Shown piece by piece: positions 3,784 through 60,607 of a stretch of DNA of 64,000 bases (positions within the stretch are counted from its first letter, which is position 1; every line of letters begins with the position of its first letter). This stretch comes from Shigella phage Sf21: the sequence record MF327007. One strand, given 5' to 3'. The translations under genes and the position numbers were made by a program. The notes under the pieces were generated by a model that ran no database searches, was not told the DNA's origin, and worked only from the letters and a program-made list of their open reading frames with translations.

Positions 3784-3859
3784 TGGTCGAGGCAGTAGGG
3801 ATCGAACCTACGACCCAGGACTTAGAAGGTCCTTGCTCTTCCTTCTGAGCTATGCCCCG
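3784..3859 (-). tRNA. tRNA-Arg (anticodon UCU)
   Basis: 76-nt cloverleaf read on minus strand; anticodon loop CUUCUAA; T-arm GTAGG-TTCGATC-CCTAC; CCA encoded. Confidence 0.85.
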
Positions 3860-3863
3860 TAAT

Positions 3864-3939
3864 TGGGGTGACCGATGGGAGTCGAACCCATGACTACGAG
3901 AATCACAATCTCGAGTTCTACCAACTGAACTACGGCCAC
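3864..3939 (-). tRNA. tRNA-His (anticodon GUG), no encoded G-1
   Basis: 76 nt; anticodon loop UUGUGAU identical to E. coli tRNA-His loop; discriminator C73; base at -1 is U not G. Confidence 0.7.
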
Positions 3940-4053
3940 ATTAATACCTACTCCAACAATCAAGATGTCTTCACACGAAATTAAGAGAAGAGTGATCAGT
4001 TCAACCCCTATAATCGCGTCAAGTAGATATTAATGTGACAGTTGTCACAAATT

Positions 4054-4128
4054 TGGCGGACGTGATAGGATTCGAACCTATAACCAATCGCTTAACAGGC
4101 GATCGCTCTGCCATTGAGCTACACATCC
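4054..4128 (-). tRNA. tRNA-Asn (anticodon GUU)
   Basis: 75 nt; anticodon stem ATCGC/GCGAT, loop CUGUUAA; T-arm ATAGG-TTCGAAT-CCTAT; CCA encoded. Confidence 0.8.
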
Positions 4129-4132
4129 AAAT

Positions 4133-4219
4133 TGGTGGGGAGTGGTGGAGTCGAACCACCCGAGTCGCAATGACAATGAATTTACAGTCCACACCGCTAC
4201 CTCTACGGGATAACTCCCC
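4133..4219 (-). tRNA. tRNA-Tyr (anticodon GUA), class II with long variable arm
   Basis: 87 nt; anticodon loop CUGUAAA with G-U containing stem; T-arm GGTGG-TTCGACT-CCACC; CCA encoded. Confidence 0.7.
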
Positions 4220-4232
4220 CTAATTCTTAATT

Positions 4233-4307
4233 TGGTGGCCCTGGGTGGAATTGAACCACCATCTGGCGATTATGAGTCGCTTGCTTGAACCTTCCAGCTA
4301 CAGGGCC
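4233..4307 (-). tRNA. tRNA with CAU anticodon (T4 tRNA-Ile-like, or Met)
   Basis: 75 nt; perfect 7-bp acceptor stem GGCCCTG/CAGGGCC; anticodon loop CUCAUAA; CCA encoded. Confidence 0.75.
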
Positions 4308-4308
4308 T

Positions 4309-4384
4309 TGGTGCTGATTGACGGAATCGAACCGCCGACCTTCTCATTACAAGTGAGTTGCTCTACCTACTGAGCTAAATCAGC
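4309..4384 (-). tRNA. tRNA-Thr (anticodon UGU)
   Basis: 76 nt; anticodon loop CUUGUAA; D-arm GCTC-AGTAGGTA-GAGC; CCA encoded. Confidence 0.85.
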
Positions 4385-4389
4385 AAAAC

Positions 4390-4479
4390 TGGCGGAGGCG
4401 ATAGGATTTGAACCTATGAGTCGCCGGAGCGACTGCCGGTTTTCAAGACCGGTGCATTAAACCACTCTGCCACGCCTCC
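4390..4479 (-). tRNA. tRNA-Ser (anticodon UGA), class II
   Basis: 90 nt; anticodon stem CCGGT/ACCGG, loop CUUGAAA; long variable arm; CCA encoded. Confidence 0.85.
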
Positions 4480-4481
4480 AG

Positions 4482-4555
4482 TCTCCGCGGCAGGATTTGA
4501 ACCTACGACATTCTGCTCCCAAAGCAGACGCTCTACCAAACTGAGCTACACGGAG
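4482..4555 (-). tRNA. tRNA-Pro (anticodon UGG)
   Basis: anticodon stem TCTGC/GCAGA, loop UUUGGGA; T-loop TTCAAAT; CCA not encoded. Confidence 0.8.
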
Positions 4556-4565
4556 TAAATTAAAT

Positions 4566-4639
<74 letters not shown>

Positions 4640-4644
4640 AAATT

Positions 4645-4731
4645 TGGTGCGAGAAGTGGGACTCGAACCCACAAGGAAATCATTCCGCAGCATTTTAAGT
4701 GCTGTGCCTTTACCAATTTGACCATTCTCGC
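4645..4731 (-). tRNA. tRNA-Leu (anticodon UAA), class II
   Basis: 87 nt; anticodon stem CAGCA/TGCTG, loop CUUAAAA; long variable arm; CCA encoded. Confidence 0.85.
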
Positions 4732-4732
4732 G

Positions 4733-4805
4733 CTGGGAATAAAGGACTCGAACCTTTGCATCTAGCAGTCAAAGTGCTATGCCTTACCAACTTGGCTAAT
4801 TCCCA
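4733..4805 (-). tRNA. tRNA-Gln (anticodon UUG)
   Basis: 73 nt; anticodon stem TAGCA/TGCTA, loop CUUUGAC; CCA not encoded; abuts tRNA-Leu. Confidence 0.85.
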
Positions 4806-53449: not shown

Positions 53450-54414
53450 TGTATTCTTTAGAGGAATTTAATAATCAAGCAATAAACGCAGATTTCCAAC
53501 GTAATAATATGTTTAGCTGCGTTTTTGCAACAACTCCATCAACTAAAAGCTCTTCGTTGATAAGTTCAATTAGCAACTTTTCTTATAATAACTTGGGTCT
53601 AAATTCAGACTGGTTAGGATTGTCTCAAGGCGATATTAATCAGGGAATTACCACGCTAATTACTGCTGGCACACAAAAACTGATAAGAAAATCAGGGGTT
53701 AGTAAATATCTTATTGGTGCCATGAGTCAACGTACAGTTCAAAGTTTATTAGGCTCATTTACAGTTGGTACATATTTAATTGACTTCTTTAACATGGCAT
53801 ATAACTCATCTGGATTGATGATATACTCTGTAAAAATGCCAGAGAATAGATTATCCTATGAAACTGACTGGAACTACAACTCTCCTAATATTCGTATAAC
53901 TGGGAGAGAATTAGACCCTTTGGTTATTTCATTTAGAATGGATTCAGAAGCTTGTAACTATCGTGCAATGCAAGACTGGGTTAACGCTGTTCAAGACCCA
54001 GTAACTGGACTGCGTGCTTTGCCACAAGATGTCGAGGCAGATATTCAGGTTAATCTTCATTCTCGCAATGGATTACCTCATACTGCGGTAATGTTCACCG
54101 GATGCATTCCAGTGTCAGTGAGCGCTCCTGAGTTATCATATGATGGAGATAACCAAATAACTACATTTGATGTTACTTTTGCATATAGAGTCATGCAGGC
54201 TGGAGCAGTTGATAGGCAAGCTGCGCTTGAATGGCTTGAATCTGCTGCTATAAATGGTATTCAAAGCGTTCTCGGAAATAGTGGAGGTGTTACTGGACTA
54301 TCTAATTCGCTTTCACGACTCAGTAGATTAGGTGGAACTGCAGGAAGCATTTCAAACATTAATACTATGACAGGAATTGTCAATTCGCAAAGTAAAATAT
54401 TAGGAGCAATATAA
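53449..54414 (+). CDS. 54: baseplate tail tube initiator gp54
   Basis: 321 aa; followed by bidirectional terminator hairpin. Confidence 0.95.
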   Translation: MYSLEEFNNQAINADFQRNNMFSCVFATTPSTKSSSLISSISNFSYNNLGLNSDWLGLSQGDINQGITTLITAGTQKLIRKSGVSKYLIGAMSQRTVQSLLGSFTVGTYLIDFFNMAYNSSGLMIYSVKMPENRLSYETDWNYNSPNIRITGRELDPLVISFRMDSEACNYRAMQDWVNAVQDPVTGLRALPQDVEADIQVNLHSRNGLPHTAVMFTGCIPVSVSAPELSYDGDNQITTFDVTFAYRVMQAGAVDRQAALEWLESAAINGIQSVLGNSGGVTGLSNSLSRLSRLGGTAGSISNINTMTGIVNSQSKILGAI

Positions 54415-54417
54415 CAA

Positions 54418-54437
54418 TGGGGACCTTTCGGTCCCCA
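54418..54437. terminator. bidirectional terminator between gene 54 (+) and alt operon (-)
   Basis: TGGGGACC-TTTC-GGTCCCCA followed by TATTTTTATTT. Confidence 0.8.
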
Positions 54438-54442
54438 TATTT

Positions 54443-54733
54443 TTATTTACGGAATGAAATAAAAGCAGCAACTGAAGCAACTAAACTGTCTTCAATATAA
54501 ACTTCAATTTTTACCGGAGCTTCTGACTCAAATTTACCTGTTACTACACCTTGGAAAATGCTTTCAGTCTGTTCTGGCTTTGAAAAATTTTCAGAAGGAA
54601 AAATTCCGAACTTTTTATCTGTTCCAAAAATTTTAATAAATTCATCGTAAACTGCTTCATTAAAAGCATTATCAGCAGGAATAACGCCTTCAACTACAAG
54701 TTCTTGACCTAAAAAGCGCAAAGAAGATTTCAT
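54443..54733 (-). CDS. hypothetical protein downstream of alt genes
   Basis: 96-aa ORF, last gene of the minus-strand alt transcription unit. Confidence 0.55.
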   Translation of the reverse strand: MKSSLRFLGQELVVEGVIPADNAFNEAVYDEFIKIFGTDKKFGIFPSENFSKPEQTESIFQGVVTGKFESEAPVKIEVYIEDSLVASVAAFISFRK

Positions 54734-54793
54734 TTTGTGTTCCTCATGTTATGTCAGTAAGACTACTATAACACAACATAAGGAACTTGTAAA

Positions 54794-56851
54794 CTACATT
54801 TTGAACTTTTTAGACATTCCGTTGATGTTAACCAAAGAAGCCAAGATTTGAGAAACTTCGTTTTCCTCTTCTTTTGATTCTTCTACAAGGAATTGATTAA
54901 ATCCAGCCATTGGACGAACTTCACCAGTTTCCATTAGATGGTCTCCATCATATACTGATTCTTCTAATTGTTCAGAAGGAGGAACGATTGTACCTTCGAT
55001 TAGATACTTGTTATAAGCAGTTTCTTTCATAAAGTAAGTACTTACTTTATTAATCTTCAGTAAAATTCCACGTGGTAGAATAACTTCAGCTTCTGATGGA
55101 AATCCTGATAAATGACCTGGAACGATAACTTTGATTCGCTCAGCTCCTTTAATTACCATACCCACGCTAGTTTCAGCATCTTCATTAGCATATGTAGAAT
55201 GACTACCCATATGCATCAAATCTTCTGCATCAACAGAACCTTCTCCTTCGCCAGAAAATACTGCACCGGAATCATCTAGAGCCATATAGTTTTTACCATG
55301 CTCGCCGAAGATATTTGGTTTAAGTGATGTCGATACGAAGTTCTTGAAATAGAACATTTTATTTTCAATGTTATGACGCAAAGTTTTAAAGGTAACTTCT
55401 TGTCCACGGTAAAGTGTAGTTCCTGGAGGAAGAACTGAACCTTTAGCGAATGCAGAATCAAGCGTCTCAATATGTTTAATAGCTCGTTCCATATATTCTT
55501 CACGGGTAGAATCTGGTTTACCCAAAAGGAACGAGTTCATTTCAACATATGAATCTGCACAATAATCTTCAATTACATCAGATTCAGCTTGAGTTAATCC
55601 TTTTGGAGTTACTTCAGTGCTTGCGTATTCATATGCCTGAGCAGCAGATTCATTAATCAATTTATAAATGCCATTCATGACAAATTGAATAATAGCTGTC
55701 TTTTCATCTGGCGTAGCTTTAGAACCTTTAACCAAATCATTGACAATTTTCTTAATAACATCAAAGCTATTAGAAATATTAATGTCAGCGAGATCGCTCA
55801 AAATTTTATCGGTTTTATAATCAAAGAATTCTTTATTCTTTAAATATTCTTGAGAACCTTGATATGTTATATCGCTCTGCAGTCTGATAGACGGATCGCG
55901 TAAACGTGCATGGGCCAATGCAATATGATTTCGGAAGCTTTCTAGTTCATAATCGTTAGATTTAAAACGAGAAGCACTTCTCATACCACCGATAGCTCCT
56001 TTGCTGAAGTTTGAACCAATCTGAATAACGCCAGAGTTCATTGGTCCTTCTGCTTTATATACCGGAACTTTAGATTCAAACTCTTGATATTTCTTGGCAG
56101 CGAAGCTATCACCCTGTAGCGAAGCATCGACAGTAGAATATTGAGCTTGTGCTGCTAATCGACGACTAATTTTAGTTTTCTGAATAACAGCTTGATCCGT
56201 GCGCTTATCATTTTCTAAAGCAATAGAAGCAGCAACAGCAACAGCTTTAGGAACAGCATTACCTGTTTTAACGTCTACATAAACATCACCGACCTTTGAT
56301 TCAACTTTTGTGAATAACTCAGTTGAAATAGGAGGTACACCTGGAATGTCTTCTAAATTGGCATTTTTACGGTAAACCATAATATATGCATATTTCTTAT
56401 CATAGTCCCAGATTTCCTTTAAAAGAACATATCGACCTGCTCCTTTAGTACGTACTAAACGGTCAGCAATAACTTGCATTTGACGAGCTGCGCCATTTGT
56501 TTTACTTTTTAGTACGCGGAATAGGCATGCGTCGATTTTATACTGTTTCATTGTTTGAAGAGCAGTATCAAAAACGGCATTAATGACACCAATTGGATTT
56601 CCACCCAAGTTTTTAAGCTTAACTAATGATAGTTTCTCATTAACACCTATCATTACGATATGCATCATTTTATCGCCTGGCTTAACGTTTTTATTCGTAT
56701 CACCACCAGAGGTGTATGTACAAAATCTAAATCCAGGAAGCACGCTTTCTTCGCCGGCTTGAATAGCAAAAATTTGTGGTATTTTATGCTTAGGATTTAA
56801 GTTAACAACCGGCGCCGAAGCGCCGTCAAATAATTCTGTAATAAGTTCCAT
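54794..56851 (-). CDS. Alt-like mono-ADP-ribosyltransferase, paralog 1 (divergent C-terminal catalytic domain)
   Basis: 685 aa; N-terminus MELITELFD shared with paralog 2; R-S-E triad (LYRGQ, STS, EAEVILPRG); SD AAGGATAAATC. Confidence 0.85.
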   Translation of the reverse strand: MELITELFDGASAPVVNLNPKHKIPQIFAIQAGEESVLPGFRFCTYTSGGDTNKNVKPGDKMMHIVMIGVNEKLSLVKLKNLGGNPIGVINAVFDTALQTMKQYKIDACLFRVLKSKTNGAARQMQVIADRLVRTKGAGRYVLLKEIWDYDKKYAYIMVYRKNANLEDIPGVPPISTELFTKVESKVGDVYVDVKTGNAVPKAVAVAASIALENDKRTDQAVIQKTKISRRLAAQAQYSTVDASLQGDSFAAKKYQEFESKVPVYKAEGPMNSGVIQIGSNFSKGAIGGMRSASRFKSNDYELESFRNHIALAHARLRDPSIRLQSDITYQGSQEYLKNKEFFDYKTDKILSDLADINISNSFDVIKKIVNDLVKGSKATPDEKTAIIQFVMNGIYKLINESAAQAYEYASTEVTPKGLTQAESDVIEDYCADSYVEMNSFLLGKPDSTREEYMERAIKHIETLDSAFAKGSVLPPGTTLYRGQEVTFKTLRHNIENKMFYFKNFVSTSLKPNIFGEHGKNYMALDDSGAVFSGEGEGSVDAEDLMHMGSHSTYANEDAETSVGMVIKGAERIKVIVPGHLSGFPSEAEVILPRGILLKINKVSTYFMKETAYNKYLIEGTIVPPSEQLEESVYDGDHLMETGEVRPMAGFNQFLVEESKEEENEVSQILASLVNINGMSKKFKM

Positions 56852-56854
56852 GAT

Positions 56855-58909
56855 TTATCCTTGAACGAACTTGTAAGGCATGTTTGCAATATCTATACAA
56901 GACGCAATAATTCCAAGAGATGATTCTACTTTCTGTTTAACATTTGATGAAACAAATGATGCAAAGTCAACTCTGTCTTCTACTTCAATATCACCTGTCA
57001 TTGCAACCAATTCACCAGTTTCCATTAAATGGTCTCCGTCATAGATTACCGATTCGGTGAGCTCTTCCGTGGTCATAACTTCAGCTTGAATAAGCTTGTT
57101 GTTAGTTTTAACTGTTCCATCATTGTAAGATGCATCAGTTATTTTATTAACTTTGACCATTAATCCACGTGGCAAAATAACTTCCATTTCATTTGAAGGC
57201 GCTAAACTTCCACCGGGTAAAACAACATTGACTTTATCAGCCCCAGTAATAACCCATCCAATTCCGACTAAATTATCGCTAGAATTAACAAGCCCTTCAT
57301 CATTTTTATCGATAGAAATGTTTAGACGCTTTTCATCTGGTAAAACACCAACAGCTGAATCAGTCATCCAAGTACCAAAAATGTTTGGATATAATGATGT
57401 TGATACAAAATTTCTAAAATAAAAAACTCGATTTTTTACCAATGCTTCATATATTGAAGGTAACATTCGCTGTGAACGATATAAAGTAATACCTTTTGGC
57501 AATCGATCACCATTTTTAAAGGCTGAATCTAAATTATCAATAGCTTTTTCTATGTCAGATGCTGTCAAAATACTTGTACGCTCATCTGGATTATATAATC
57601 CCAAAAGAGCATTATTTATGTCTACATATCCTGAACCTACGTATTCACGAATTCCGCGTTTTTGTGCTGGTGTGTATTTAGATGAATCTTTATTTTCGAC
57701 TATAGGATGTAATGACCATCCAGCTGTAAGAGCATATCCACGTAATTCTCTTCGAATAATCTTTGTTTTTATTGCATTCCAAGAATTTTGTACTAACTCA
57801 TTTGCAGCATCTTGGTTTAAATGCGAATGTTTGTTAATATTTCTTTCAAACCAAGCACCTTTATATTTTTCTAAAGTATCATCGACGATAGAAGCAATAG
57901 TTTCTAAAGTTTTTATTGAAGTAATAGATTCTTTTCGTAATTTTTCTAAAGCTTTATTTTTTATTTCTGCATTAATAATGGATTCTTTATCTTCAGGAAT
58001 TATAGAAGCTTCTCTGAATGCCATCCCAGCTGTAACACTGCTAAGAGCATTCTCTAGTGCAAATCCTGAAGTAGAAATTACCGTTAATTCATTAGAATCA
58101 GAAATTAAAGGCGCGTCCGCTGGTTTATTTAATTCTGCCGCTGAAGCCTCAAATTTTTGAAACATCGGTGTTTCAAATCTAGAAGATTCCAATGACTGAC
58201 TTTGTGCAATTGCTCTACGGGAAATTTTAACTTTAACGATTACGGCTTGGTCAGAACGTTTATCATTTTCTTGTGCAATAGATGCAGCAATTGCCTCATT
58301 TTTGGTTACTTGAGCTCCAGTATCTTTATTGATATAAACATCACCGACCTTCGATTCAACTTTAGTAAAGAGCTCGGTGCTAATTTCTGGAACTCCTGGA
58401 ATGTCTTCTAGTGATACATTTTTACGATGTATAAGAATATATGCATACTTTTTATCGTAATCCCAGAGTTCCTTAAGAAGGACGTATCTGCCACCTGAAC
58501 GACTACGGATAAGTCTATCAGCAATAACTTGAATTTGTCGAGCTTGGCCAGCAGTTTTAGACTTAAGAATACGAAGCATACAAGCATCAATTTTATATTG
58601 ACGCATTGTTTGCATTGCAACAGTAAAAACTGAATTGATATAATTAATTGGGCTTGGACCAAGACCTTTTAATTTAGCAATTGAACCTTTAGCAGTTAAT
58701 GTAAAAGGAACAATATGCATCATTTTATCGCCCATTTTTAAATCGCGATTAGTATCACCTCCAGATGTATAGGTACATAAACGAAAGCCTGGTTGTTCAA
58801 TTGCATCATCAACATGAACTGAAAAAATTTGCGGTATTTTCTTCTTTGGATTTAAGTTTGTAATCGGAAGAGTAGTATCTTCGTCAAATAATTCTGTAAT
58901 AAGTTCCAT
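56855..58909 (-). CDS. alt: Alt mono-ADP-ribosyltransferase (packaged, modifies host RNA polymerase)
   Basis: 684 aa from second ATG; R-S-E triad (LYRSQ, STS, EMEVILPRG); TATAAATA (minus) at 58933-58940; adjacent to gene 30. Confidence 0.9.
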   Translation of the reverse strand: MELITELFDEDTTLPITNLNPKKKIPQIFSVHVDDAIEQPGFRLCTYTSGGDTNRDLKMGDKMMHIVPFTLTAKGSIAKLKGLGPSPINYINSVFTVAMQTMRQYKIDACMLRILKSKTAGQARQIQVIADRLIRSRSGGRYVLLKELWDYDKKYAYILIHRKNVSLEDIPGVPEISTELFTKVESKVGDVYINKDTGAQVTKNEAIAASIAQENDKRSDQAVIVKVKISRRAIAQSQSLESSRFETPMFQKFEASAAELNKPADAPLISDSNELTVISTSGFALENALSSVTAGMAFREASIIPEDKESIINAEIKNKALEKLRKESITSIKTLETIASIVDDTLEKYKGAWFERNINKHSHLNQDAANELVQNSWNAIKTKIIRRELRGYALTAGWSLHPIVENKDSSKYTPAQKRGIREYVGSGYVDINNALLGLYNPDERTSILTASDIEKAIDNLDSAFKNGDRLPKGITLYRSQRMLPSIYEALVKNRVFYFRNFVSTSLYPNIFGTWMTDSAVGVLPDEKRLNISIDKNDEGLVNSSDNLVGIGWVITGADKVNVVLPGGSLAPSNEMEVILPRGLMVKVNKITDASYNDGTVKTNNKLIQAEVMTTEELTESVIYDGDHLMETGELVAMTGDIEVEDRVDFASFVSSNVKQKVESSLGIIASCIDIANMPYKFVQG

Positions 58910-58932
58910 CATAGCCTCTCTAGTGTTTATTC

Positions 58933-58940
58933 TATTTATA
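58933..58940 (-). promoter_or_regulatory. T4 late promoter core TATAAATA (alt)
   Basis: exact TATAAATA on minus strand ~25 nt upstream of alt start. Confidence 0.7.
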
Positions 58941-58947
58941 AAATTAA

Positions 58948-58964
58948 AGGCCCGAAGGCCTTTA
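58948..58964 (-). terminator. UUCG hairpin between ORF 58962..59150 and alt late promoter
   Basis: minus strand AAGGCC-TTCG-GGCCTT. Confidence 0.5.
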
Positions 58965-59150
58965 GTAATCTAGTGGTAAGAGAGTACGATATATTTCAAA
59001 CTTTGGTCCTTTTTCATAGGCATCAAATGTTTCTGTAAATTTATTATAAGCGTATGCATCTACAAATTCGAGAATGACTTGTGATACAGAAGTAGAAACA
59101 TCTCCACCTTCTTTTTGAGCAATGACAATTGTTTCTAAGTAAGCTTTCAT
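58962..59150 (-). CDS. small hypothetical protein
   Basis: 62-aa ORF overlapping gene 30 stop by 4 nt. Confidence 0.45.
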   Translation of the reverse strand: MKAYLETIVIAQKEGGDVSTSVSQVILEFVDAYAYNKFTETFDAYEKGPKFEIYRTLLPLDY

Positions 59151-60607
59151 AAACCAGTTACCTCATGAAAATCACCAAATACATCCTCGAATGTATTAGC
59201 TTTAGTTTTATCTTCACGTAAACGAATCGCAATCGGAAGAAATAATTTAACGTAATCAGTGCGGCCATCAGATTTTAACCAACCGTTGCATTCGCACTCT
59301 AGAATTTTTCCAATATAATAATTTTGGTTTTCCATAATGCGAGTACGGTCAAGTTCATGCGATTTTACACCGGCTTTATCTTTTAAGCCTGAACCAGCAT
59401 TTACTTTAATTTTTCCACACTCTGACTCAAGAATAAATCCACCTGCTTTAGTAGGGTCTTTACGGTGAGGATAAATTCCTACAATTTTTAAATCAACATC
59501 AATTACTTCTTTAAATTTATAGAGATTTTTTGAACGAGCATTTTCCCATAATCCATCGGTATTTTTGAGAATAATACCTTCAAGACCTTGGTCAATATAC
59601 TTTTTATAAATTACCTTAGCTTCATCTAGGTTATTTACTACTTGGTTTTCAATTAAAATTACTTTATCATATCCTGATGTCATTTGTTCTAGTTTAGAAA
59701 AACGTACATCATATTTTAAACGAAACGCCGGAAGACCGTATATTTCTACTAACGGGACATAATCCCAGACCTGAAACTTCATGCATTGAGCTTCTTTTTC
59801 AGAAATGGTTCCCTTTAAAGATTTATTGGCGATGCCATTAGATGCAGTACGAGATTCAGCTACTTCGGCAAACTCTTTAGCTTTACTGATTTCAGGAGCA
59901 TCAAAAAGAAAATCTAGACCTTCTGGCTCTTTTTCAACTTGCTCATGATATACCAATTCGCCATCAATTAACACGCCTTCTGGATGAATCTGGCGGGCTT
60001 CTGCAGTCATTTTGATTAACTCTTCCTTAAGAAGATCTAATCCTAGATATTCATTACCAGCTCGTGATAAAAGACGAACATCATCTAATTCATCGCCTCG
60101 GACTTCAGCAAAACACCGAGCTCCATCTGCTTTTAACTGTGCAAAGGCTGGAAATTTGATATTCTTACTAATGCCTTTTTCATCATAAGAACTTGCCAGC
60201 ATTTGAGGTTGTTCAGGAATTAAACCTGGCCAAACTTTATTTGCAATAGATACTGAAGCACCGCATTCAAGATCTCGCATCATCACTCGACGCAAAACTT
60301 CAACATCATCCTTTTTACCATCAGTGATATATCCAGTTAATTCCTCAATTGCAGCATTTCCAGTCAATTTCCGAGTAGCTAACGTGAATTCAATGAAGTC
60401 AAGCATATCGGTAATAGTCAGCATTCCAAAACTCTGGGTAGCAATACCAGGTTTAGGCCATTTCTTGATATAATACTGTAACCCACGAGAATAAGTCAGA
60501 CGATATACTCGTTTAAGCAATTCATTATCTTTATTCTTTTCAAGAATTGCTTGCTTCTGCTTAGTTGATCCAATAGATGCTATTTCATTCAGAATTTTAA
60601 GAATCAT
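59147..60607 (-). CDS. 30: ATP-dependent DNA ligase (gene 30)
   Basis: 486 aa; N-terminus MILKILNEIASIGSTKQKQAIL; adenylation motif KADGARC. Confidence 0.97.
   Translation of the reverse strand: MILKILNEIASIGSTKQKQAILEKNKDNELLKRVYRLTYSRGLQYYIKKWPKPGIATQSFGMLTITDMLDFIEFTLATRKLTGNAAIEELTGYITDGKKDDVEVLRRVMMRDLECGASVSIANKVWPGLIPEQPQMLASSYDEKGISKNIKFPAFAQLKADGARCFAEVRGDELDDVRLLSRAGNEYLGLDLLKEELIKMTAEARQIHPEGVLIDGELVYHEQVEKEPEGLDFLFDAPEISKAKEFAEVAESRTASNGIANKSLKGTISEKEAQCMKFQVWDYVPLVEIYGLPAFRLKYDVRFSKLEQMTSGYDKVILIENQVVNNLDEAKVIYKKYIDQGLEGIILKNTDGLWENARSKNLYKFKEVIDVDLKIVGIYPHRKDPTKAGGFILESECGKIKVNAGSGLKDKAGVKSHELDRTRIMENQNYYIGKILECECNGWLKSDGRTDYVKLFLPIAIRLREDKTKANTFEDVFGDFHEVTGL

Follow-up and report, generated by a model that had tools for sequence, protein, structure and literature searches.

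Phage T4 carries an ADP-ribosyltransferase (ART), Alt, into its host. Alt is a prohead-core protein with ~40 copies per head, injected together with the DNA (PMC9026906; PMC2988021), and gp21 was found by mass spectrometry to cut 6 residues from its N-terminus (at ITE-6) and 63 from its C-terminus (at LTE-619), leaving a protein of 68.2 kDa (PMC5694885). T4 Alt ADP-ribosylates Arg265 of RNA polymerase alpha and many other proteins (PMC2988021). In T4, the single alt gene is followed by the small open reading frames (ORFs) alt.-1 and alt.-2, which Nolan et al. 2006 (PMC1524935) listed as paralogous duplications of alt, noting that phage 44RR has a full-length one. Here, we analyzed a 64,000-nucleotide (nt) stretch of Shigella phage Sf21 (sequence record MF327007), hereafter the window, to which all coordinates refer, and we found alt followed by an intact full-length paralogue, alt2. 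We propose that Alt2 is probably a second arginine ADP-ribosyltransferase that would be made late, packaged in the head, injected and directed at targets of its own.

The two minus-strand ORFs lie in tandem, head to tail, at 54794..56851 and 56855..58912, each encoding 685 amino acids (aa), as the first-pass annotation had described from the letters alone. The alt ORF opens with ATGATG, so that the first ATG at 58912 gives 685 aa and the second at 58909 gives 684 aa; the second is the start annotated in T4 (MELITE), and a GAGG Shine-Dalgarno sequence lies 5-6 nt away from it. The alt gene (56855..58909, minus strand) is the orthologue of T4 Alt, with 99% identity to NP_049811, matches to PF03496 and phrog_802, and the T4-type form of its middle and ART parts. 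It occupies the same place as in T4, between alt.1/gene 30 and gene 54, and shares with it the late promoter, the cleavage sites and a mature mass of 68.2 kDa. Apart from its C-terminal propeptide, longer by an insertion of two residues (65 versus 63 in T4), the Sf21 Alt protein shows nothing notable. The alt2 gene (54794..56851, minus strand) begins 3 nt after alt (TAA atc ATG), with AAGGA 9 nt ahead of its start. By homology, it is a full-length Alt paralogue of 685 aa and the intact form of the gene represented in T4 by alt.-1 and alt.-2.

Both proteins belong to the Alt-type ADP-ribosyltransferases with an R-S-E triad, which bears out the first assignment of the pair. The Pfam profile search matched PF03496 (ADP-ribosyltransferase exoenzyme) with 71.9 bits for Alt2 and 123.4 bits for Alt, against a gathering score of 23.4 bits. 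The profile phrog_802 ("Alt-like RNA polymerase ADP-ribosyltransferase") aligned with Alt2 residues 1-685 over positions 2-674 of 674 (E = 1.2e-256) and with Alt from end to end (E = 3.9e-263), and the protein database gives PF26846 and PF03496 for all Alt homologues. In Alt, the ART domain comprises approximately residues 374-619 (57053..57790, minus strand; Pfam and motifs), ends at LTE-619 and retains R478 (codon 57476-57478), S503-T-S (S503 at 57401-57403) and E574-M-E576 (57188-57190 and 57182-57184). In Alt2, the ART domain comprises residues 414-631 (54959..55612, minus strand), ends at the predicted processing site LEE-631 (54959-54961) and retains R482 (55406-55408), S507-T-S509 (S507 at 55331-55333) and E587-A-E589 (55091-55093 and 55085-55087). 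Across an alignment of 60 diverse proteins that carry the N-terminal domain, the R, STS and ExE residues show a conservation of at least 90%.

Structure prediction, which had been put forward as a check on the C-terminal domain, agreed with this assignment. The AlphaFold model of Alt2 has a mean predicted local distance difference test (pLDDT) score of 78, and Foldseek placed its catalytic domain in the C3/VIP2-type ART fold, the best PDB folds being Vis, C3 (C3bot), CDTa, VIP2 and iota Ia (probability 1.00, E from 8e-07; TM-scores 0.56-0.64, normalised to the single-domain targets). The C3-like and binary-toxin ARTs share the R, STS and ExE motifs with Alt2 at an identity of 14-20%. They are secreted bacterial toxins that act on eukaryotic actin or Rho, whereas Alt proteins go from a phage head into bacteria. 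The ExE motif accompanies arginine specificity in the C2/iota/VIP2 group. No solved structure or sequence relative of Alt2 or of its N-terminal domain was found in the PDB, and the NCBIfam search gave no result. The residues between the N-terminal and ART domains (239-413; 55613..56137, minus strand) form a middle region that is predicted to be all-helical, and it is presumed to be the target-recognition part.

ModA and ModB have been placed in a broad R-S-E clade of ARTs together with Alt (PMC5512222), and the first-pass annotation had suggested aligning the pair to this family. Alt2 showed no similarity to either protein (BLASTP E = 0.5 for ModA and 2.1 for ModB, with the catalytic region unaligned), which rules out its membership of the ModA/ModB family. 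Unlike Alt2, ModA and ModB are non-packaged proteins of ~200 aa that are expressed early and have neither the N-terminal domain nor propeptides.

The proposal that the two proteins share a packaging and processing module was strengthened by the comparison with T4 Alt. In Alt, the N-terminal propeptide (MELITE) and the conserved N-terminal domain (~240 aa) are encoded at 58190..58909 (minus strand), and the computed mass of residues 7-619 is 68.2 kDa, the same as that of mature T4 Alt. In Alt2, the MELITE propeptide (E6 codon 56834-56836) and the N-terminal domain together make up residues 1-238 (56138..56851, minus strand). Alt2 keeps ITE-6 and has LEE-631 at the position of the C-terminal LxE site, for a predicted mature mass of 69.2 kDa, both cleavage sites having been mapped experimentally for T4 Alt alone. 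The two P1 glutamates, E6 and E631, reach a conservation of at least 90% across the 60 diverse family members and are among the few near-invariant residues. The predicted C-terminal propeptide of Alt2 (residues 632-685 plus the stop codon; 54794..54958, minus strand) is 54 residues long, acidic, and begins with the conserved SVYDGDHLMETGE; residues 630-685 have a pLDDT below 50 in the AlphaFold model, which fits a propeptide. We also observed that YDGDHLMETGE stands right after the C-terminal protease site in both paralogues (54920-54958 and 57014-57052), and relatives keep YDGD...E.G. That a motif is conserved within a propeptide due to be discarded points to core binding, or to restraint of the enzyme before maturation, as its possible role.

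Delivery of a protein into the prohead core, with gp21 trimming and injection with the DNA, is the logic of T4 IPI, IPII and IPIII and of the MuF-fused head effectors (PMC9026906; PMC9503650), and Alt2 would have it in common with Alt and with them. Alt and Alt2 stand apart from these effectors by their large, dedicated N-terminal domain and by a further propeptide at the C-terminus. This N-terminal domain is also rare, forming 73 clusters in a set of 1.8 billion representative proteins, and it is linked to an ART domain in 56 of 60 proteins. MuF carries many kinds of effector, whereas the Alt/Alt2 domain is essentially restricted to ART-bearing proteins. A MuF-like general delivery module for many effectors was thus ruled out (56/60 with ART, 73 clusters only).

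The same domain bears on the possibility that Alt2 is an active ART that is unpackaged or poorly packaged and acts in the late cytoplasm on host or phage proteins, for example during assembly. A late promoter would put Alt2 in the cytoplasm late in infection in any case, its extreme N-terminus departs from that of Alt past residue 9, and the literature yielded no proteomic evidence of Alt2 in virions. However, both gp21 sites and the entire N-terminal domain are conserved, and this domain nearly always occurs together with an ART (56/60). In addition, the N-terminal domain of Alt2 tracks the co-resident Alt and not the closest relatives of the effector part, which is expected of a capsid-specific module. 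We consider an unpackaged Alt2 unlikely.

This tracking was seen when Alt and Alt2 were compared region by region. Overall, the two proteins are 41% identical (BLASTP, E = 3e-162). In the N-terminal domain (Alt2 1-238), the identity is 68% in the pairwise alignment and 67% in a 16-sequence alignment, and the motifs MELITELFD, YKIDAC, GRYVLLKE, DYDKKYAYI and ISTELFTKVESKVGDVY are found in both. The high similarity of the N-termini noted earlier thus stands, although it extends over about one third of the protein (~238 aa) and not one half. The middle (Alt2 ~239-413) has an identity of 22% in the pairwise alignment, with many gaps, and 12% in the 16-sequence alignment. For the ART domain and tail together, the pairwise identity is 38%, and the 16-sequence alignment gave 36% (ART) and 44% (tail), with insertions and deletions in the stretch between STS and ExE. 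The greatest divergence had been attributed to the catalytic C-termini; instead, the ART domain keeps all its motifs at 36-38% identity, and the helical middle (12-22%) is the most diverged part.

In the 16-sequence alignment, the N-terminal domain of Alt2 has 67% identity to the co-resident Alt versus 46% to JS10-type Alt. The order is reversed in the middle (12% versus 43-47%), in the ART domain (36% versus 56-57%) and in the C-terminal propeptide (44% versus 61-72%). The pattern of the N-terminal domain is what a module fitted to its own capsid core would show, and it supports the idea of a shared packaging module.

At the nucleotide level, the identity of the two N-terminal regions is 67%, and merely 51% at third positions. 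The alt/alt2 duplication is therefore old, and the likeness of the N-termini is kept by selection at the protein level and not by recent gene conversion; recent duplication or ongoing gene conversion is unsupported in Sf21. In other phages, three database proteins (P0003, P0005 and P0006) are of the Alt2 type with an Alt-type N-terminus up to approximately residue 53, 190 or 220. These chimeras indicate recombination between the N-terminal regions of the paralogues in other phages.

Variation of another kind was observed among alt genes themselves. There are at least two allelic cassettes of alt for the middle and ART parts (57053-58175 in Sf21), and the T4-type cassette was found at full length in just 173 records. 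The alt cassette of T2, T6, PP01 and Bas37, compared at loci L004:4501-6594, L007:5808-7901 and L008:4363-6456, is 32% identical to the T4 type over the middle and 66% over the ART domain, between an N-terminal domain of ~100% and a C-terminal propeptide of 91-95% identity. The alt alleles look like the products of cassette exchange within a constant frame. T4 Alt acts in the evasion of Mokosh type I, against which T4 Alt restores growth and Bas37 Alt does not (bioRxiv 10.1101/2025.11.20.689424). Since Bas37 Alt is unable to replace T4 Alt, variation in the middle and ART parts alters function between alt alleles.

Alt2 could also be a redundant back-up that shares the main targets of Alt, such as RNA polymerase alpha Arg265, and is kept for dosage or robustness. 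The catalytic motifs and the architecture are common to both proteins, T4 lost Alt2 without obvious harm, and T4 Alt and ModA already overlap on Arg265 (PMC2988021). Against redundancy, the duplication is old even in its best-conserved part (51% at third positions), and the effector part of Alt2 is nearer to the Alt of other genera than to the neighbouring Alt. Moreover, each copy is under strong purifying selection, and the two genes fall in different fitness classes in Bas37. Taken together, redundancy seems to us improbable. A distinct target set is the most likely outcome for Alt2, because its middle and its STS-ExE loops differ from those of Alt and because the difference between Alt2 and Alt far exceeds that among alt alleles.

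The T4 record does have the single alt followed by small ORFs that the first-pass annotation mentions, the ORFs being alt.-1 (NP_049810) and alt.-2 (NP_049809). These fragments, one after the other, align along the first ~117 residues of Alt2, which is intact in Sf21, and their nucleotide identity to alt2 is 97% over the first ~350 nt. T4 DNA matches 56900..56504 at 97% and then resumes at 54813..54400. According to the DNA alignment, the ~1.69-kb stretch gone from T4 (54814..56503) is flanked by the 9-nt direct repeat CTAAAAAGT. T4 is also short by one A in an A-run near 56692, a frameshift that divides alt.-1 from alt.-2. The PHROGs of alt.-1-like and alt.-2-like proteins matched Alt2 (2e-40 and 3e-38) better than Alt (1e-21 and 2e-19). 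On the alignments, alt.-1 and alt.-2 are the decayed remnant of alt2, which in T4 has undergone a deletion between the two CTAAAAAGT copies and also bears a 1-nt frameshift. The T4 GenBank note already attributes them to an ancient duplication of the beginning of alt.

The first-pass annotation implied that a full second paralogue is unusual, and this did not hold. The Alt2-specific 3' two-thirds were found in 400 phage records (at least 80% coverage, 94-98% nucleotide identity) and the T4 deletion junction in 91, among them T4 strains and field isolates such as HY03, SG1, ACG-C40, RB55 and RB59, where counts are of database records and include duplicates and laboratory variants. The intact alt-alt2 pair is clearly the usual state in Tequatrovirus, and T4 is the exception. 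A 685-aa gene lies beside alt in T2 (T2_202), T6 (AXN58232), PP01 (PP01_203), HP3 (gp056) and KarlGJung/Bas37 (bas37_0032). The copy of BASEL phage Bas37 is annotated as "ADP-ribosyltransferase Alt2", the genes of T2, T6, PP01 and HP3 are unnamed, and the T6 record remarks "apparent insertion in alt.-2; also similar to alt". In T2, T6, PP01 and Bas37, the partner alt has the T2/T6/PP01-type middle and ART cassette, whereas Sf21 has the T4-type cassette (HP3 is excepted from this contrast). The arrangement of alt and alt2 and its link to T4 alt.-1/alt.-2 are thus already known and annotated in hundreds of genomes. Escherichia phage sutha has one alt of 696 aa followed by a 38-aa ORF (L005:5001-5117) that matches the 3' end of alt2 only; judged by this remnant, sutha is a case of Alt2 loss independent of the T4-type deletion.

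The six Alt2 orthologues compared are each exactly 2058 nt long, and their pairwise dN/dS (the ratio of nonsynonymous to synonymous substitution rates) is 0.03-0.06 and low in all four regions. Alt2 orthologues are under strong purifying selection. With intact frame and motifs and a dN/dS of ~0.04, a pseudogene or dead enzyme was ruled out. The deletion in T4 and 90 other records and the other remnant in sutha might suggest that Sf21 alt2, too, is decaying or encodes a catalytically dead protein, which is highly implausible given its intact 685-aa frame, the presence of all catalytic residues, a dN/dS of ~0.04 and the same length and sequence in T2, T6, PP01, HP3 and Bas37.

Transposon data are available for Bas37 in Extended Data Table 7 of the HIDEN-SEQ study (bioRxiv 10.1101/2025.11.20.689424). 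There, bas37_0032 (Alt2) has insertions at 116 of 164 TA sites (saturation 0.71, mean count ~45) and is classed as "Intermediate", and bas37_0033 (Alt) has insertions at 164 of 179 TA sites (saturation 0.92, mean count ~204) and is classed as "Non-essential". This observation hints that Alt2 contributes to fitness on K-12.

The transcription signals of the locus were examined by motif search over 53-60 kb. The sole T4-type late promoter in this region, TATAAATA, lies at 58933..58940 on the minus strand, ahead of the upstream copy, as the first-pass annotation had reported. From its position, it is placed to drive alt and probably alt2 as well. Directly upstream of it, past alt.1, is an intrinsic-terminator-like hairpin (TAAAGGCCTTCGGGCCTTTA, then a T-rich run; 58945..58964, minus strand) at which the alt.1 transcript would end. 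No late promoter of its own was found for alt2 in this search, and no terminator-like site was found at the alt-alt2 junction. The first terminator-like site on the minus strand downstream of the late promoter is a bidirectional terminator hairpin at 54417..54438, which separates the plus-strand gene 54 from the minus-strand alt.-3. With one late promoter and no terminator-like site between the genes, alt and alt2 are likely to be co-transcribed, with close-coupled translation.

On this basis, we propose the following course of events for Alt2. Late in infection, transcription would start from the single TATAAATA promoter and probably pass through both genes, alt2 being translated from its own Shine-Dalgarno sequence. 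Each product would consist of a 6-residue propeptide (ITE), an N-terminal domain of ~230 aa, a variable helical middle, a C3/VIP2-type ART and an acidic C-terminal propeptide past the LxE site. Alt and Alt2 would both be built into the prohead core, and gp21 would trim them at both ends to ~68 kDa (Alt) and ~69 kDa (Alt2). After injection with the DNA, they would move ADP-ribose from NAD+ onto arginines of host proteins ahead of phage gene expression. Alt2 would most likely hit host proteins other than those hit by Alt, plausibly ones that serve defence or gene expression in the host. For comparison, T4 Alt is reported to interfere with MazEF, as cited in bioRxiv 10.1101/2025.11.20.689424. The gene structure, the homology, the conserved motifs and cleavage sites, the promoter, the purifying selection, the distribution and the decay in T4 are shown by the sequence data; that Alt2 is co-transcribed with alt, packaged, processed and enzymatically active and has targets of its own is what we infer.

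Several points weigh against this course of events. Our literature searches found no paper characterising Alt2 and no virion proteomics covering it, and we found no direct evidence for Alt2 in virions, for its cleavage, for enzymatic activity or for distinct targets; the published proteome of Morganella phage MP1 deals with a single Alt only. The case for co-transcription of the two genes depends solely on consensus signals being absent. Alt2 and Alt also diverge a little within their first ten residues (LFDG in Alt2, LFDE in Alt), and targeting efficiency could differ between the two proteins as a result. In the Bas37 data, Alt2 showed a conditional phenotype in neither of the two resampling comparisons listed (log2 fold change (log2FC) of 0.11 and 0.19; bioRxiv 10.1101/2025.11.20.689424), and truncated products that are toxic, or a bias in insertion, could account for the "Intermediate" class instead of loss of function. 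Finally, T4 and 90 other records with the deletion junction live without Alt2, and it is therefore dispensable, at least on the hosts of the deletion carriers. Weighing both sides, we still regard a packaged and injected Alt2 with its own targets as the probable case.

The gene order around the pair is the same as in T4, T2 and T6, with baseplate genes 48/54 on one side and ligase gene 30 on the other, and the locus has 97-98.7% nucleotide identity over 5 kb to many Tequatrovirus genomes, HP3 and DalCa being the closest. The plus-strand genes 48 and 54 end at 54414. The final gene of the minus-strand block is an alt.-3 homologue of 96 aa (54443..54733, minus strand; DUF5498, Pfam/PHROG match). 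It is faced by a strong sigma-70 early-type promoter-like site of its own (54765..54793, minus strand; TTTACA, 17 nt, TG-TATAGT, 10/12 matches), which begins at the alt2 stop codon. T4 alt.-3 mutants with a C-terminal extension escape the CmdTAC defence (PMC11618068), and the orthologue bas37_0031 was depleted in one HIDEN-SEQ resampling comparison (log2FC -2.70, q = 0.02; bioRxiv 10.1101/2025.11.20.689424). On the other side, an alt.1 homologue of 62 aa (58962..59150) matches the Pfam profile "Phage blade protein" (PF24647, E = 1.9e-29), and next to it lies the DNA ligase gene 30 (59147..60607).

Elsewhere in the window, we observed a minus-strand cluster of 11 tRNA genes at 3784-4805 (Arg, His, Asn, Tyr, Met(CAT), Thr, Ser, Pro, Gly, Leu and Gln). 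T4 has eight tRNA genes. Relative to that set, the His, Asn and Tyr tRNAs of Sf21 appear to be additional, and its gene with the CAT anticodon may be the counterpart of T4 tRNA-Ile.

The N-terminal domain may hold a further function. Its predicted fold is weakly GNAT-like in the structure model, with a loop K117-x-x-G120-x-A/G between the strand 108-114 and the helix 122-136 that reads KGKG or AGRG in distant members. G120 is at least 90% conserved in the 60 relatives, and the loop may correspond to motif A of GNAT enzymes (Q/R-x-x-G-x-G/A), which binds the pyrophosphate of acetyl-CoA. The domain had no Pfam match even at E <= 10 in a copy of Pfam searched without PF26846, the family that the protein database assigns; its profile had no sequence match in the PDB, and in these searches no GNAT family was matched. 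It is conceivable, and in our view quite doubtful, that the domain is a diverged GNAT-like module binding acyl-CoA or a similar ligand, so that Alt and Alt2 would be injected two-function effectors and alt-alt2 a cassette-swapping site. If true, a constant capsid-adapted N-terminal module would be combined with exchangeable target-recognition and ART parts against different host defences.

As a genome annotation, the alt-alt2 pair holds nothing new, and the interest of Alt2 lies in its function alone, which is a fair and unsurprising question. This analysis corrects a T4-centred view of the locus: the reference phage, T4, is the exception and lacks the greater part of a gene that is held under strong purifying selection in T2, T6 and most relatives. 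The Bas37 screen, the sole one covering Alt2, suggests that Alt2 matters more than Alt on the laboratory host. A conserved second enzyme that is probably injected, with a recognition region different from that of Alt, would be a sensible candidate for counter-defence or take-over activity.

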